From IMG/VR virus record IMGVR_UViG_2562617057_000004, positions 1 to 10,981 of that record: a stretch of 10,981 nt of DNA; one strand, written 5' to 3'. Made by a program: the position numbers and the translations under genes. The notes under the pieces were generated by a model, which was not told the origin of the DNA, ran no database searches, and saw only the letters and a program-made list of their open reading frames with translations. This DNA is from a virus (Duplodnaviria > Heunggongvirae > Uroviricota > Caudoviricetes). This document shows positions 7,185 to 10,981 of the stretch, in pieces (positions within the stretch are counted from its first letter, which is position 1; each line of letters begins with the position of its first letter).

Positions 7185-7412
7185 TTATTCTCCGGTGTGA
7201 TGCGCGTTATTATTCTCGTGAATTGCCATAGCCTTATTGAGTTCATCAATAACAGGTGTCAATAATGTCCGAACAGCGGCAAACATTAATGACTCTGATT
7301 CTTTTCCGGCTTCCGGTATTTCCATTAATTTTCCTAACAGCGCATTCATTTCACGCGCTTTAATTAATGCGTTTTCAGAGTGGATTAATACTTCAAAAGG
7401 GATTTTATGCAT
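7185..7412 (-). CDS. Hypothetical protein
   Basis: 75 aa from ATG at 7412, which overlaps the TGA of the upstream Icd-like gene. Confidence 0.5.
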   Translation of the reverse strand: MHKIPFEVLIHSENALIKAREMNALLGKLMEIPEAGKESESLMFAAVRTLLTPVIDELNKAMAIHENNNAHHTGE

Positions 7413-7579
7413 CACAAATTTTCTCCCTGGCGAATACGGGCGACAAAAATCAGATGTGCGTGCGGCAGCTGCGCACGGGCTTCGTGCTCACTGGCGGCGG
7501 TAACGGTGTGAAGGCGGATGTTTTTACCGTGGCACTGCATAAAGCGCCAGACAAAGTAAGGGCGTGTGAATACAGCCAT
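7412..7579 (-). CDS. Icd-like cell-division inhibitor family small protein, copy 2
   Basis: 55 aa MAVFTRPYFVWRFMQCHGKNIRLHTVTAASEHEARAQLPHAHLIFVARIRQGENL; GGGAG SD; paralogous to copy 1 (Fx[20 protein letters not shown]). Confidence 0.7.
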   Translation of the reverse strand: MAVFTRPYFVWRFMQCHGKNIRLHTVTAASEHEARAQLPHAHLIFVARIRQGENL

Positions 7580-7589
7580 GTGAAAGGCT

Positions 7590-7800
7590 CCCAATTTAAT
7601 GTTAAGGAGTCTCGCTACTACGCTGCTAAACGGGGTGGCGAGACGTAACAGGGTTAGCAGACTGGCAAATTGGGAAACCAGCGAGCGCAAAGGCTCCCCC
7701 GTTACGCCCCGCCATAATGCGGGTATGGGTAGGTTTACGGACACAAAAAAACCGCTTATCGGATATGGGCGGCTGTCCGCCAATTTATTCAGGCTGCTAA
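7590..7800 (-). ncRNA. Untranslated leader with candidate C4/CI-type antisense RNA, module 2
   Basis: Leader CCCAAATT (rc of 7667-7674) is complementary to AAATTGGG at the Icd RBS; hairpins and a T7 run (rc of 7741-7750); no credible coding. Confidence 0.3.
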
Positions 7801-7865
7801 ACCCGGTCGCCATGTGGGCGACACAGGAAGAATACAGCCCTGTGATAATTTTTTGCAAGCGGTTT

Positions 7866-8054
7866 TTACACATGGGCCACCCCCTGACGAATACGGGCAG
7901 CGAATACAGCAACACAACCAGACGGGCAACGGCTACGCGCTTCGCGTTCCGTCCAGGCGGTTACGTGGATGATTTGATGTTCTGACGCGCCAAAGGCAAT
8001 AAAGCGCCAGATAAAGGCAGTTTGAGAATGTACGAGGGTAGGGGTAGTAGCCAT
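7866..8054 (-). CDS. Icd-like cell-division inhibitor family small protein, copy 1
   Basis: 62 aa [71 protein letters not shown]; forms the C-terminus of a spurious 415-aa ORF. Confidence 0.7.
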
Positions 8055-8214
8055 GTTGGCAGCCTCCTCAGTGTGGTTAAGATAACCGCCACGCAAAAGG
8101 CTAATTTCGCTGGTGGCGGACTGTACAGGGTTAGCCTTACCGGACACTGAAGAAACCGGCGCGGATTGCTCCGCCCCCGTACAGCCCACCATTGATAAGG
8201 TGTGGCTATGCGGC

Positions 8215-8300
8215 ACAAAAAAACACGCAGGGCGCGTGCTGTGCGCTTCAGTTGTTTTCAGGAGGCTAATCCCGGCACCCGTTTTATAAGGTGCACGCGA
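8215..8300 (-). ncRNA. Candidate C4/CI-type antisense RNA with intrinsic terminator, module 1
   Basis: Minus strand AGCCUCCU (rc of 8260-8267) is complementary to the Icd SD AGGAGGCU (rc of 8061-8068); followed by hairpin CACGC-gcccu-GCGUG and U7 (rc of 8217-8238). Confidence 0.35.
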
Positions 8301-8499
8301 ATCATAGCCCTGGCTGGCAGTGGCGATCAACTGGTTTTTCATACCCGCTTTATTCAGGTTGTGCGAGTCCCGCCCTTGCGGGTGTGTGGTATGATTTAAC
8401 ATAGCTACCTCGATACGCTTTCTATCGTTGGTGGTTAGAAGCCCGGTTAGTGTTCGCGCACTGCCGGGTTTCGTCGTTTCTGGACCTTGCATCAACAAG

Positions 8500-8572
8500 G
8501 TGTTGAACACCAATTTAAACCCAGGTGTTAAACACGTCAAGTGTTGAACACTTATTTTTTTTCCTGCATACT
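8500..8572. promoter_or_regulatory. Divergent promoters sharing three operators (candidate genetic switch)
   Basis: GTGTTGAACAC at 8500-8510 and 8541-8551, GTGTTAAACAC at 8525-8535; rightward TTGAAC -17- CATACT (8544-8572); leftward TTGACG -17- TAAATT (rc of 8535-8540 and 8512-8517). Confidence 0.6.
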
Positions 8573-8601
8573 GCATTTGTTTTTTGTGAGGGGTACACAA
8601 C

Positions 8602-8781
8602 ATGGCGACAAAAGCAGTAAACGCAAAATCACAAACAGTTGCGGCAAGGGTTCCGCATGAAGTTATGAACAATGTTGAGGCGGTAAAAATGCTTGGTGAA
8701 AGTACAGGGCAGTTTGTAACAGCAGCATTAAAGCGAGAAGTTGAGTACCGCCAGCGGCGCAAGGCCAAAGAACCAGAGTAA
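8602..8781 (+). CDS. Small DNA-binding protein, possibly ribbon-helix-helix; candidate repressor
   Basis: 59 aa [67 protein letters not shown]; below the ORF-track size cutoff; directly downstream of the operators. Confidence 0.55.
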
Positions 8782-8823
8782 TCACCATCAGCGCCGTGGT
8801 GTAAGGTATTACGGCGCATTGCT

Positions 8824-9012
8824 ATGCAGGACAACACAATGACCGATAAAGAATTGACCAAAACATTATCACCGGCACGGAAAAGACGGCGCAGAAAGAT
8901 AGAGCATGAATCAGAAAGATTCGCGCCATGTGCTTTTGCCCTTGAGCAATTCCTTAAAGAGTACAGGGAAACGCGCCCATTGCAGGTATGGCAACGAACT
9001 GAACCAGACTGA
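8824..9012 (+). CDS. Hypothetical basic protein
   Basis: 62-aa ORF downstream of the RHH-like gene and upstream of a plus-strand terminator; weak RBS. Confidence 0.3.
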
Positions 9013-9076
9013 TTGCATTGCCCACCAGCCGACAACCTAGTATTCTGGATATGCTCAAGTTTAGTGTTATGCCACT

Positions 9077-9104
9077 GGCGACCGCCCCCGGTCGCCTTTG
9101 TTTT
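9077..9104 (+). terminator. Rho-independent terminator closing the rightward unit
   Basis: GGCGACCG-cccc-CGGTCGCC followed by TTTGTTTT. Confidence 0.6.
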
Positions 9105-9123
9105 ATGTGTCATATGCTCCCCT

Positions 9124-9333
9124 TTACGCTGCCTTGCCTGAATTAATGCGATCCCGGCTTTTAACCCATTCCATAACCTCGGACAGCAGCCACCCTACAG
9201 AACGACCGCCCAGATTAAGACGTGACGGAAAGCGCCCTTTTTTCTCCAGTTCGTAGCGTGTAGTGCGGCACACTCCAGTTAACTTACGACATTCATCCTC
9301 ACGGATTACGCGATCTTCATTTATTTCACGCAT
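9124..9333 (-). CDS. alpA: AlpA-family transcriptional regulator
   Basis: [50 protein letters not shown] fits the AlpA HTH pattern; ATG at 9333 gives 69 aa; the GTG at 9420 (98 aa) has its SD abutting the start codon. Confidence 0.8.
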
Positions 9334-9742
9334 ACAAAAACCTACATAAAAATTACGTATATAAACTTTTCTCTTAGCTGTAGATATATGAGATCGGATA
9401 TTACTTAGATTCTTTTTCACCTCTTAAATTAAAAACACAACCTTGCTAAAGGCTTTGTTCGCTAAGGTTCGTAGAAGCTCGTTAGTGTTTAAAATCGTGT
9501 CACGAGTTTTTAAGAGACGCAACAAAAAATGTCGTCATTTGGCACTTTGCTTGAATTATCACATATAAAACAAACAGATAAACCATCGATTATGGAAACA
9601 ATCAAAAAACAGAGAATAAGAATTCAGAAGAAGACATTTCAATTTTTTCGATGGTTGACAAATAAAAACACAACGAACTTTGTCGATATTCGTCGATTTA
9701 TTCACGGCTGTAATCTCTTAAAGAAAAAACAGCCGTAATTTG

Positions 9743-10981
9743 TCAAGAATTTTGAGTGCAAATTCGCGGGGTCATAACAACGATTTTTTCATCATTATTC
9801 TGGAGAAGCTCGAGACGTTCTACCCATAGATTAAGAGCATCACGTTTTGCATCAAGATAGCGGGAGTGGTTATAGACTCGTTGCATCCCTGGCATCTGGT
9901 GGGCTGTAAGCTGCTCGACAATATGCGGATCCACGCCTAAATCGTTCAGCATGGTTGTAAATGTGTGCCGGATATCGTGTAACGTCCAGGGGGCTTGATT
10001 AATTCGTCTGTGCGCTGTTCTTCCGTACTCTGCTACCGAAGATTGTCCTTTCAGTTCACCAAGCAATAAGCCCGTGTGTCTGTTCTGCTCCACCAGCTGC
10101 GTGACGAACGGCAAAATGCTTTCCGGTATTGGCCTGAATATGGCGACCTTCGTTTTGCTGTGCTCCTTCGGTACTGTCCAGAGCATTTCTTTAAAATCCC
10201 ACTCCTGCACCTCAGAGCGCCTTAGCTCGGTGGTACGGCATCCAAAAACAATCAGGAGGCGAATTAGGGCGCTGTAGTACGGCGGGAATATTTTGTCATC
10301 CAGAACGCGGAGTAATTCCCCGAGCTCCTTGTTTGTTAGTACGCGCTCGCTCACTTCTGCTTTTTTTCCCACATCACCGACAACCATATCATCAAGAACG
10401 TTGCTGATTGCGTATCGTCGTTTTCGGCAGTACTTAAGCGCCTGTTTGCATACCTGTAGCAAAAATCCGGCAGATACTGGGCTTCGCTTTGCCATCTGGT
10501 CAAAACATGCCAACCAGTGCCGTAGCTCGCATTTTTCCAGTGGCATAGCGCCAATCTGGCTGATTATGTGTTTATTGATTCGGCTTTTCAGTGATTCGTA
10601 GTCAGTGCGCTTTTCCTTTGCATACGATTCAAGCCAGTAAGTGAGCGCTTCCTTAACTGTCACGGGGGCTAACGTATCCTGTACAGCACGATTAAGCTCA
10701 TAGCGCGGATTTTTCCCCTCAGCCAGCCAGGCGCGACACTGTGCCGCTTTTTCCCTGGCTGCTTTAAGGCTCAGATCGGGATAATTGCCCAGCCTCAGAC
10801 GTTCCGGTGATACCTGCCTACCAGTTCCGGCCCTGTAAGTGAAATACCAGGTTAACAGGCCATTGGTTGAATGCCTTACGCTAAGGTTGCCACCATCATT
10901 AAAAAAGGTGTTTTTTGTGGTTGGTGATCCGCTTAATTTTCGTAAAAGAGTGTCGCTAAGTCTATGAATTGCCCTGCTCAT
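9743..10981 (-). CDS. int: Tyrosine integrase, P4 type
   Basis: 412 aa; N-terminal arm-binding-like LSD..GGNLSVRHSTNGLLTWYFTYR, catalytic HDIRHT and YNHSRY motifs; ATG at 10979-10981 is the window edge, so the true start could be further upstream. Confidence 0.92.
   Translation of the reverse strand: MSRAIHRLSDTLLRKLSGSPTTKNTFFNDGGNLSVRHSTNGLLTWYFTYRAGTGRQVSPERLRLGNYPDLSLKAAREKAAQCRAWLAEGKNPRYELNRAVQDTLAPVTVKEALTYWLESYAKEKRTDYESLKSRINKHIISQIGAMPLEKCELRHWLACFDQMAKRSPVSAGFLLQVCKQALKYCRKRRYAISNVLDDMVVGDVGKKAEVSERVLTNKELGELLRVLDDKIFPPYYSALIRLLIVFGCRTTELRRSEVQEWDFKEMLWTVPKEHSKTKVAIFRPIPESILPFVTQLVEQNRHTGLLLGELKGQSSVAEYGRTAHRRINQAPWTLHDIRHTFTTMLNDLGVDPHIVEQLTAHQMPGMQRVYNHSRYLDAKRDALNLWVERLELLQNNDEKIVVMTPRICTQNS

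Follow-up and report, generated by a model that had tools for sequence, protein, structure and literature searches.

The DNA examined here is a stretch of 10,981 nucleotides (IMG/VR record IMGVR_UViG_2562617057_000004, Caudoviricetes), hereafter called the window, which by its gene content is a phage-inducible chromosomal island (PICI) of the EcCICFT073 type. Between its replication genes and alpA, both read on the minus strand, lies a short operon that is read rightward. A sequence-only reading, made without database searches, had described the head of this operon as a divergent switch, in which three GTGTTnAACAC inverted repeats overlap two promoters and precede a gene of 59 codons, missing from the list of open reading frames (ORFs), for a protein resembling the ribbon-helix-helix (RHH) regulators. 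The three repeats, called operators here, were confirmed as O1 (GTGTTGAACAC, an exact match) at 8500–8510, O2 (GTGTTAAACAC) at 8525–8535 and O3 (GTGTTGAACAC again) at 8541–8551, with centre-to-centre spacings of 25 and 16 bp. The unlisted ORF was also confirmed, at 8602–8781 on the plus strand, with a GAGGGG ribosome-binding site (8588–8593) 8 nt upstream. When one mismatch was allowed, GTGTTnAACAC occurred in the window at O1, O2 and O3 only, while shuffled windows held 0.42 on average and none of 200 shuffles reached three; at two mismatches, there was no excess elsewhere in the window (6 found versus 5.1 expected).

The operators lie across two predicted promoters. A promoter scan placed a sigma-70-like leftward promoter (PL) at 8512–8540 of the minus strand, composed of TTGACG (8540–8535), a 17-base spacer and TAAATT (8517–8512), and this is the predicted driver of the operon holding isrK-like, C4 and icd-like elements, DUF4222 and the primase gene. 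O2 lies inside the PL spacer and abuts the −35 hexamer, O1 starts 1–2 bases past the −10 hexamer and spans about −6 to +5 of the promoter, and O3 stands against the −35 hexamer on its upstream side. The rightward promoter (PR, 8544–8572, plus strand), which was read from the sequence, consists of TTGAAC (8544–8549), held within O3, a 17-base spacer and CATACT (8567–8572); the latter hexamer is at −36 from the start codon of the 59-codon gene, where relatives have TATACT, TATAAT or TATATT.

A small protein with a predicted ribbon-helix-helix fold

The 59-amino-acid (aa) protein was matched over residues 9–50 by the NCBIfam family NF041551 (YlcI/YnfO) with 58 bits against a cut-off of 30 (E = 6.8e-16) as well as by phrog_949, a family of unknown function (E = 6e-21), and the same protein is found in RefSeq as WP_000201458.1, named "YlcI/YnfO family protein". 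Its homologues are short, full-length and restricted to Enterobacterales, and an exhaustive profile search of 1.84 billion proteins retrieved only 79 clusters at 50% identity. In the homologous genes, 812, 442 and 1642 substitutions fell on codon positions 1, 2 and 3, respectively, a bias which argues that the ORF 8602–8781 is translated. In the CFT073 genome, the corresponding gene carries the late-added locus tag C_RS30120, and its product is WP_000190587.1.

An AlphaFold2 model built on a 30-sequence alignment (mean pLDDT 84.6) has an extended N-terminus followed by helices at residues 19–28 and 35–56, i.e. the strand, helix and helix of the RHH superfamily within about 45 residues, and its best structural matches were RHH antitoxins and plasmid regulators (CopA_SO of prophage CP4So, CopG, omega and ParD). 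In the sequence searches, no Pfam family (RHH_1, Arc, MetJ and CopG included) reached E ≤ 1 and no match was found in the PDB; hence, it is the predicted fold by which we assign the protein to this superfamily. The model thus supports the protein being an RHH protein, and the DNA-binding fold that the sequence-only reading had supposed was predicted. The family profile gave no significant score for K-12 YlcI alone, which is therefore only a distant member, nor for the alternative RHH protein of O157, and we assign neither to the subfamily of the 59-aa protein. K-12 ylcI, which lies beside cos/nohD without triple repeats, was dropped as a functional lead.

Sites and promoters keep their places in related loci

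A scan of one genome per species gave 33 related loci, to which came 14 found by looking up exact proteins and the island EcCICFT073, the prototype of the Gram-negative PICIs. About 35 related loci, EcCICFT073 among them, showed the same layout. The gene order of the window, with the operon from icd-like gene to primase read leftward, the RHH gene rightward, and int and alpA leftward, was kept in about 25 Enterobacterales loci and in EcCICFT073, covering Escherichia, Salmonella, Klebsiella, Edwardsiella, Kosakonia, Pectobacterium, Serratia, Proteus, Xenorhabdus and others. Upstream of the RHH start codon, these loci have repeated 11-mers of locus-specific sequence, always at about −102 and about −77 and in addition at −32 and/or −61. 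The homologue of O1 (about −102 in 24 loci) was always 22–26 bp from that of O2, and the latter, found at −76 to −78 in all loci, was followed directly by (C)GTCAA, which is TTGAC(G) when read leftward. An equivalent of PL, scoring 8–10 of 12, was present in 24 of 24 loci: a leftward TTGAnn right after O2, a spacer of 16–18 bases containing O2, and a leftward TAnnnT hexamer between O1 and O2, with O1 starting −2 to +3 nt past this hexamer. The rightward −10 hexamer (TATACT-like) was conserved at −36. The proposed overlap of the repeats with divergent promoters, therefore, was borne out in all 24 loci examined, and sites in the same places were found across the related islands.

The third site showed more variation. 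A site at −60/−61, the position of O3, was seen only in the GTGTTnAACAC class (the window, L003, L006, L043 and L047), where its TTGAAC half doubles as the −35 hexamer, and this is also the only class with three adjacent sites. In most other loci, the third site is at −32, immediately after the rightward −10 hexamer; this site has been lost in the window, L003 and L047. The family as a whole thus shares a layout in which the leftward promoter has two sites and the RHH gene's own promoter has one, with about 45 bp between them in most relatives. In 12 related loci, the locus-specific 11-mer occurred within 6–21 kb only upstream of the RHH gene. Among true phages, tblastn gave a single match, to a 16.5-kb "phage" that resembles a PICI, and the intergenic DNA gave no real match.

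Site sequence co-varies with the N-terminal strand of the protein

The 11-mer differs between loci, changes at all sites of one locus together, and tracks residues 11–15 of the RHH protein; no such relation was seen with AlpA, the integrase or the replication proteins. Residues QT[VIL]AA go with GTGTTnAACAC in the window, Edwardsiella, Kosakonia, Pectobacterium, Klebsiella and a P4-like element of E. coli; KKLEA with GTGTCAGCCAC in Xenorhabdus and E. coli; KRFDV with GTGTC[CG]GACAC in Leclercia, Pectobacterium and Salmonella; KKIDV with GTGTCAGACAC (L045, L046); QSVTA with GTGTCTTACAC (L035, L036); QALKA with GTGTGGCCCAC in EcCICFT073; QK[LV]Q[AT] with GTGGA[CG]TCCAC (L018, L023, L024); and QKMSA with CTGGCACCCAG (L025, L026). 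By sequence, at least nine specificity types of the RHH/operator cassette can be told apart. The mean identity of sites was 9.5 of 11 positions within one locus; between loci, it was 9.87 of 11 where residues 11, 12, 14 and 15 were shared (n = 28) versus 7.16 of 11 where they differed (n = 248), a difference reached in 0 of 5000 permutations of the protein labels, a test that ignores relatedness.

Five protein variants were looked up after the class table had been drawn up, and all had the predicted site, or a new site where the residues were new. As predicted beforehand, E. coli P0038 (KKLEA) had three copies of GTGTCAGCCAC, the same as in Xenorhabdus, Salmonella P0048 (KRFDV) had three copies of GTGTCGGACAC, the same as in Pectobacterium, and P0019 and P0024 (QT[IL]AA) had GTGTTnAACAC; P0028, in which a new N-terminus is joined to the same C-terminus, had the new site GTGTCTTACAC. 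A natural swap is provided by the window and L035, which occupy the same att site and whose AlpA and integrase are 97% and 96% identical. The flanks of the two islands are 93.5% and 88.8% identical, whereas a 190-bp cassette between them (8503–8693 in the window; operators, both promoters and RHH codons 1–31) is only 55% identical and carries different operators; accordingly, the two RHH proteins share 52% of residues 1–31 versus 96% of residues 32–59. The regulatory pair and its neighbours also come apart in both directions: L037 and L039 have identical RHH proteins and operators with AlpA proteins only 24% identical and different replication proteins, while CFT073 and L037 have AlpA proteins 95% identical and different operator classes. 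Together, these data argue that the repeats are operators of the 59-aa protein, as the sequence-only reading had held, since the sites of a locus change together and along with the residues of the N-terminal strand. The co-resident islands L011 and L027 of Xenorhabdus innexi belong to different classes, and so do L015 and L029 of X. mauleonii.

Proposed role of the protein and competing explanations

From these observations, we consider it quite probable that the 59-aa RHH protein is a site-specific repressor of the leftward replication ("early") operon, that it also regulates itself, and that it is encoded in an exchangeable cassette. Because O1 and O2 are at repressing positions and the third site is at an autoregulatory one, we infer the direction of regulation, i.e. 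repression of PL and autoregulation of PR, from the positions of the sites. The protein would bind the 11-bp sites, presumably as dimers and through its N-terminal β-strand (residues ~10–17). Protein bound at O2, within the spacer, and at O1, over the start site, would block RNA polymerase at PL, and in the integrated state the operon of isrK/C4/icd-like elements, DUF4222, primase and SSB would be kept silent. Occupation of O3 over the protein's own −35 hexamer would bring about negative autoregulation, a task that in most relatives would fall to the site just after the −10 hexamer. The operators and RHH codons 1–31 would then form an exchangeable cassette akin to the immunity types of phages. 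With at least nine types of such a cassette, co-resident or incoming islands would not cross-repress each other, and such a cassette, occurring in so many classes, points to selection for types that do not cross-react.

Several points weigh against this reading. Both PL and PR are consensus-level predictions. Kinship among the loci, left aside by the permutation test, is corrected for only qualitatively by the dissociation pairs, so that the forward predictions, the natural swaps and the converse pairs weigh more than the test does. L027 and L029 share residues 11–15 (QKIQA) and yet have related but non-identical sites (GTGGAGTACAC versus CTGGATTCCAG), and L007 shares K12 and S14 with L025/L026 while its sites differ from theirs; residues 11–15 by themselves thus do not fix specificity, and other residues contribute. 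The distant member K-12 YlcI has no such repeats at its place next to cos/nohD. Finally, overexpression of AlpA alone induces EcCICFT073 (PMC6092414), from which it follows that the RHH protein is not an unconditional lock.

Other explanations have to be set against the repressor. The RHH protein might be the antitoxin or autoregulator of a toxin–antitoxin-like pair formed with the 57/62-aa gene behind it (orf62), with the repeats serving only to autoregulate that pair and their overlap with the leftward promoter being incidental, and a small variable second ORF does lie downstream of the RHH gene in several E. coli relatives (L035, L037, L038 and L039). We rejected this explanation as very unlikely for want of a conserved partner gene: tblastn with orf62 found nothing in the 33 related loci, the Pfam, NCBIfam and phrog scans gave it no match to a toxin family, the RHH gene is often solitary among the relatives with no conserved toxin adjacent to it, and in L010, L011, L013, L014 and L016, among others, no more than ~250 nt separate the RHH stop codon from the convergent alpA. 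Moreover, the leftward promoter has two of the three sites in all 24 loci examined. The RHH protein might also bind the sites and yet act mainly as something other than a repressor of the leftward operon, namely as an activator or an architectural factor, such as a cofactor of excision or recombination directionality or a centromere binder of the partition type. This is unlikely, given that a spacer site and a start-site site, the classical repressing positions, were kept in 24 of 24 loci, that the sites are far from the att ends, and that family scans of the window and its relatives found no ParA or relaxase partner nearby.

The repeats might also belong to another protein of the island, either as iterons of the primase or replication initiator, as in P4 ori/crr, or as elements for AlpA, with the RHH protein doing something else. 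It is general knowledge that the P4 alpha protein binds short repeated motifs and that AlpA-family proteins bind promoter-proximal elements, and the repeats are indeed upstream of the replication operon. However, loci with identical sites can encode replication proteins that are unrelated (DUF927, AAA_25, D5-type, Toprim, or none together with KilA-N) and AlpA proteins only 24% identical, different sites occur with AlpA proteins 95–97% identical, and the sites change jointly with RHH codons 1–31; in view of these dissociation pairs, we discarded this possibility as highly improbable. That the palindromes act as RNA in the leftward leader, as hairpins, terminators or processing sites, rather than as protein-binding DNA, is scarcely credible, even though O1 was scored as a weak minus-strand terminator-like hairpin. 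O2 and O3 are upstream of the predicted leftward start site, O1 is flipped in orientation relative to O2 in L035, and many classes keep their sites all the same with a core that is not self-complementary (GTGTCAGCCAC, GTGTGGCCCAC, GTGTCTTACAC); such non-palindromic cores exclude a role as RNA hairpins. A site-specific RHH repressor remains our preferred explanation.

RNA elements of the leftward operon and a candidate antisense small RNA

The start of the regulated leftward operon (7412–8402, minus strand) contains, in order of transcription, an isrK-like leader with a terminator (8294–8218; Rfam isrK, 63.5 bits, gathering score 50), a C4 RNA (8196–8109), an icd-like gene (8054–7866), a second c4-a1b1/isrK-like element (7835–7745), a second C4 RNA (7719–7631) and a second icd-like gene (7579–7412). 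The two C4 copies scored 75.4 and 74 bits (gathering score 45), c4-a1b1 scored 42.7 bits in the window, just under its gathering score of 46.7, and the two icd-like genes matched NCBIfam phage_ICD_like with E-values of 4e-17 and 7e-16. The isrK-like/C4/icd-like unit is thus duplicated in tandem (8294–7866 and 7835–7412), and the stem sequences of the two C4 copies differ. The window thus has C4 RNA, isrK leader and icd-like gene in one transcription unit, as in the C4 antisense-RNA immunity of the P1/P7/P4 type. Of the "Icd-primase" operon named in the sequence-only reading, the promoter stood, while its first product is not simply Icd, as the operon opens with an isrK-like leader and a C4 RNA. 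The putative RNA-based control and the AlpA activator on top of which that reading had placed the protein repressor are both there (C4/isrK by Rfam and AlpA by Pfam). A tight link of the RHH module to C4/isrK was considered and dropped; at gathering score, only L036 and L039 among 20 relatives had these RNAs.

Two longer minus-strand frames run through this region. A 178-aa ORF (8402–7866) traverses the first isrK/C4/icd-like unit, and the Pfam family Phage_ASH matches its residues 33–126, a match that coincides with the isrK and C4 RNA genes. Phage_ASH may, therefore, be largely a translation of RNA genes or else represent a nested leader ORF as in P4. The other is a 415-aa ORF (7866–9113), which traverses the icd-like gene, the C4 and isrK RNAs, the small RNA described below, the operators and the antisense strand of both small plus-strand genes; RefSeq annotates parts of it as "ash family" and "Icd-like" pseudogenes. 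We did not accept it as a gene, since it spans the promoter region and is absent in close relatives (gene calls of L035), and since both family matches and substitution patterns typical of coding DNA favour the plus-strand ORFs.

On the plus strand, in the stretch that separates O1 from the start codon of the first leftward ORF (8402), covariation and a covariance model revealed a conserved candidate small RNA with two hairpins (8396–8482), which is antisense to this start codon and to the ribosome-binding site in front of it. Hairpin 1 (8404–8435) exposes an anti-Shine-Dalgarno CCUC in its loop, and CAT at 8400–8402, which complements the start codon, lies just 5' of this hairpin within the model match; hairpin 2 (8438–8472) forms a terminator together with a U-rich tail, about 20 nt short of O1. 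TGgTATGAT at 8387–8395 is a possible promoter. RNAalifold on 22 loci yielded 25 pairs, 15 of them with compensatory changes, and a consensus energy of −29.9 kcal/mol for the plus strand versus −6.0 for the minus strand; the pairs hold 82 G·U versus 3 A·C. Of 32 sources searched with the covariance model (R1), 21 gave hits, each with a single site per locus on the strand that is sense for the RHH gene and with E-values of 1e-11 to 1e-19. At least 16 of these 21 were outside the model alignment; the training set included the window, L001 (100% identical to the window) and EcCICFT073 (L050), and L035 and L003 are near-identical to training rows. The RNA is missing from L040/L041 and L047/L048. 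In Rfam, only symR (RF01809) matched below threshold (8403–8475, 32.6 bits versus a gathering score of 61, E = 0.005), and the candidate is like SymR in architecture only.

By its sequence and position, the RNA looks like a cis-antisense small RNA that could keep the first leftward ORF from being translated. In P4-type systems, premature termination is known to be influenced by translation of this ORF. The linker between the two hairpins, GGTTAGA(A/G)GCC (8431–8443, plus strand), hardly varies between genera; it shows partial complementarity to the single-stranded CUAACC of C4 RNA and is kept also in loci without a C4 at the Rfam gathering threshold.

Gene content of the island and variants of the module

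Downstream of the RHH gene, the rightward operon contains a second small gene (8824–9012; phrog_21027, E = 3e-16), whose product has 62 aa or, more likely, 57 aa with the ATG at 8839 as start codon; in EcCICFT073, too, the gene behind the RHH gene encodes a homologue of 57 aa. Its product is very basic (RKRRRRK), and the gene is not conserved in most other loci. An intrinsic terminator (GGCGACCGCCCCCGGTCGCC then TTTGTTTTAT, 9077–9106, plus strand) ends the operon in the terminator scan. Converging on it is alpA (Pfam Phage_AlpA, E = 2e-16), for which RefSeq and homologues support the 69-aa form (9124–9333, minus strand) over the 98-aa ORF from GTG (9124–9420). Between alpA and the operators, the only strong terminator is at 9077–9096, and its U-tract is on the plus strand only; on the minus strand, there are two weak terminator-like matches, namely 8657–8640 and O1 itself. 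Since no strong intrinsic terminator faces the alpA direction, transcription from alpA may run on, antisense to the RHH operon, into the leftward operon. AlpA has been reported as an activator of EcCICFT073-type islands (PMC6092414), and we speculate that AlpA-driven transcription of this kind could bring about induction by bypassing the repressor and interfering with it, and that the adjacent antisense small RNA could silence leaky leftward transcripts.

The remaining genes are all on the minus strand and, as found by family scans of the window (Pfam, NCBIfam and Rfam), comprise the integrase (9743–10981), DUF4222 (7179–6892), a D5-type primase (6895–5141), SSB (4596–4174), a lambda-E-like capsid protein of 351 aa (3553–2498) and a lambda-D-like decoration protein of 111 aa (2486–2151); a 76-aa ORF is at 7185–7415. 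By Pfam, int, alpA, primase, SSB, capsid and decoration genes stand in the EcCICFT073 order. The late region (1055–3792) matches the capsid-redirection set of EcCICFT073, with a 79-aa ORF, the capsid and decoration proteins and 137-aa and 99-aa ORFs, which places the window in this PICI lineage. In CFT073 (1377930–1388654), gene order and sizes are equal to those of the window (capsid 351 aa, decoration 111 aa, 137-aa protein, primase 584 aa). E. coli VL40 contains a degraded copy of the island adjoining cspD/macB, in which an 831-nt regulatory query is 100% identical, and this region was matched in 1671 of 5426 complete E. coli genomes. The Rfam int-alpA RNA motif (RF02996) was not detected in the window; it is present between int and alpA in L002 (6853–6921) and L045 (5198–5266).

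The RHH/operator module appears to be portable. Among L040/L041, L043, L045 and L047, it heads operons starting with KilA-N (Salmonella) or ORF6N/Bro-type genes and Klebsiella operons with PerC and DNA methylase genes, and it is also found in a P4-like element with a Toprim/DUF927 primase and the P4 epsilon ("Derepression") gene. Two E. coli islands have other RHH-like ORFs. In the O157:H7 island at roxA (L051, 3770–3990), a different, unannotated RHH-like ORF of 57 aa (beginning MSTPLEKRSPPYQMRLPEDF) occupies the slot between the small RNA and the orf62 homologue; two GGTAATTACCATG palindromes stand in front of it, and RefSeq has an "Icd-like" pseudogene on the opposite strand. L037 (3480–3864) has two tandem RHH modules, the second being an unrelated RHH-like ORF of 59 aa with palindromes of its own (TGTGTATATACACA-like) and, in front, a terminator-like hairpin with the GGTTAGA motif and a T-run.

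Discussion

Small RHH repressors of phages are known from the immI region of P22, where Mnt and Arc keep the auxiliary immunity I operon silent in the integrated state, with an operator over the target promoter and specificity set by the N-terminal β-strand. The switch proposed here would resemble this system more than lambda OR, and P22 Mnt/Arc is its closest working analogue: in both, the RHH gene diverges from the operon that is, or would be, silenced, the promoters are back to back, and the operator is on the target promoter. Unlike in P22, the protein here would act on a satellite's operon of C4/icd-like elements and replication genes instead of an antirepressor gene (KilA-N or ORF6N genes are in the regulated operon of some relatives only), there are three (or two plus one) 11-bp sites instead of one operator of 17–21 bp, and there is one RHH gene instead of two, with many specificity types. 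Sequence homology between the proteins is not detectable, and none of the Pfam Arc, Mnt or RHH families matched. As for the lambda OR-like layout put forward in the sequence-only reading, divergent promoters sharing a tripartite operator region, with the regulator's own promoter among the targets, were found. Two antagonistic regulators were not; no Cro-like antagonist or other DNA-binding regulator lies on the other side, where there are RNAs and a first leftward ORF that is Ash/Icd-like. Furthermore, the protein is of the RHH and not the helix-turn-helix (HTH) type, and the adjacent tripartite arrangement is confined to one class, most relatives having the two-plus-one layout.

The leftward operon itself, which opens with isrK-like and C4 RNAs and icd-like genes above Rfam or NCBIfam thresholds, is like P1/P7 immI and the P4 immunity region. 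The immI operon of P1 is additionally under the protein repressor C1 at Op51, a precedent for a protein acting over RNA control, while P4 is not known to have a protein immunity repressor. However, C1 is large, unrelated to RHH proteins and encoded elsewhere, whereas the 59-aa protein is encoded adjoining its sites; also unlike P1, P7 and P4, the RHH module is found in loci without C4/isrK at Rfam gathering thresholds. The RHH antitoxins and plasmid regulators that matched the model (CopA_SO, CopG, omega, ParD) share with the protein its shortness and repeated sites in the promoter of their own, autoregulated gene, but the protein has no conserved toxin or partition partner, and two of its three sites serve the divergent promoter. 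In the PICIs of Gram-positive bacteria (SaPIs), genes for the master repressors Stl and Rpr are divergent from the replication/excision operon (PMC6092414), and the RHH gene occupies the same logical position in the switch. Stl differs in being a large, unrelated HTH protein, co-oriented with int and relieved by helper-phage proteins, while the RHH gene is opposite to int and alpA, and induction of EcCICFT073 needs AlpA, unlike Stl-type relief (PMC6092414).

For the Gram-negative islands, the 2018 PICI paper called the repressor "unclear" (PMC6092414). A later study treated the islands as essentially unidirectional, with RNA immunity, and described their zones and C4/isrK RNAs but not the RHH gene (PMC10111431), and another mentions this gene only as an accessory "prophage-associated protein" (PMC13612085). 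In a literature search that did not extend to subscription-only papers, we found no paper on the function of YlcI/YnfO/DUF3950, and none describing an RHH repressor in Gram-negative PICIs or the antisense small RNA at 8396–8482, which is apparently undescribed. The proposed mechanism is ordinary for an RHH protein; what is new is a candidate repressor that would fill an acknowledged gap in a model island, and the 59-aa protein is, to date, the strongest candidate for a repressor in islands that were thought to be without one. More tentatively, and with somewhat more doubt than belief, we propose that YlcI/YnfO-type RHH proteins are the missing maintenance ("immunity") repressors of Gram-negative PICIs, capsid-forming PICIs (cf-PICIs) and some P4-like satellites, with EcCICFT073, already in use for experiments, among them. 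In that case, the hypervariable cassette would define heteroimmune classes, induction would proceed by an overriding, AlpA-driven convergent transcription, and the antisense small RNA would be a second lock.

Gram-negative PICIs and their relatives are widespread and mobilize virulence and anti-phage genes. This analysis provides a concrete candidate repressor, an operator code in at least nine classes and a natural swap pair; it also locates the module in EcCICFT073, the laboratory model, and gives the YlcI/YnfO family a probable function. A set of orthogonal, very small repressor/operator pairs of this sort could serve as genetic parts. For the biology of these islands, the findings bear on how they stay silent in their hosts and on whether they have immunity types.

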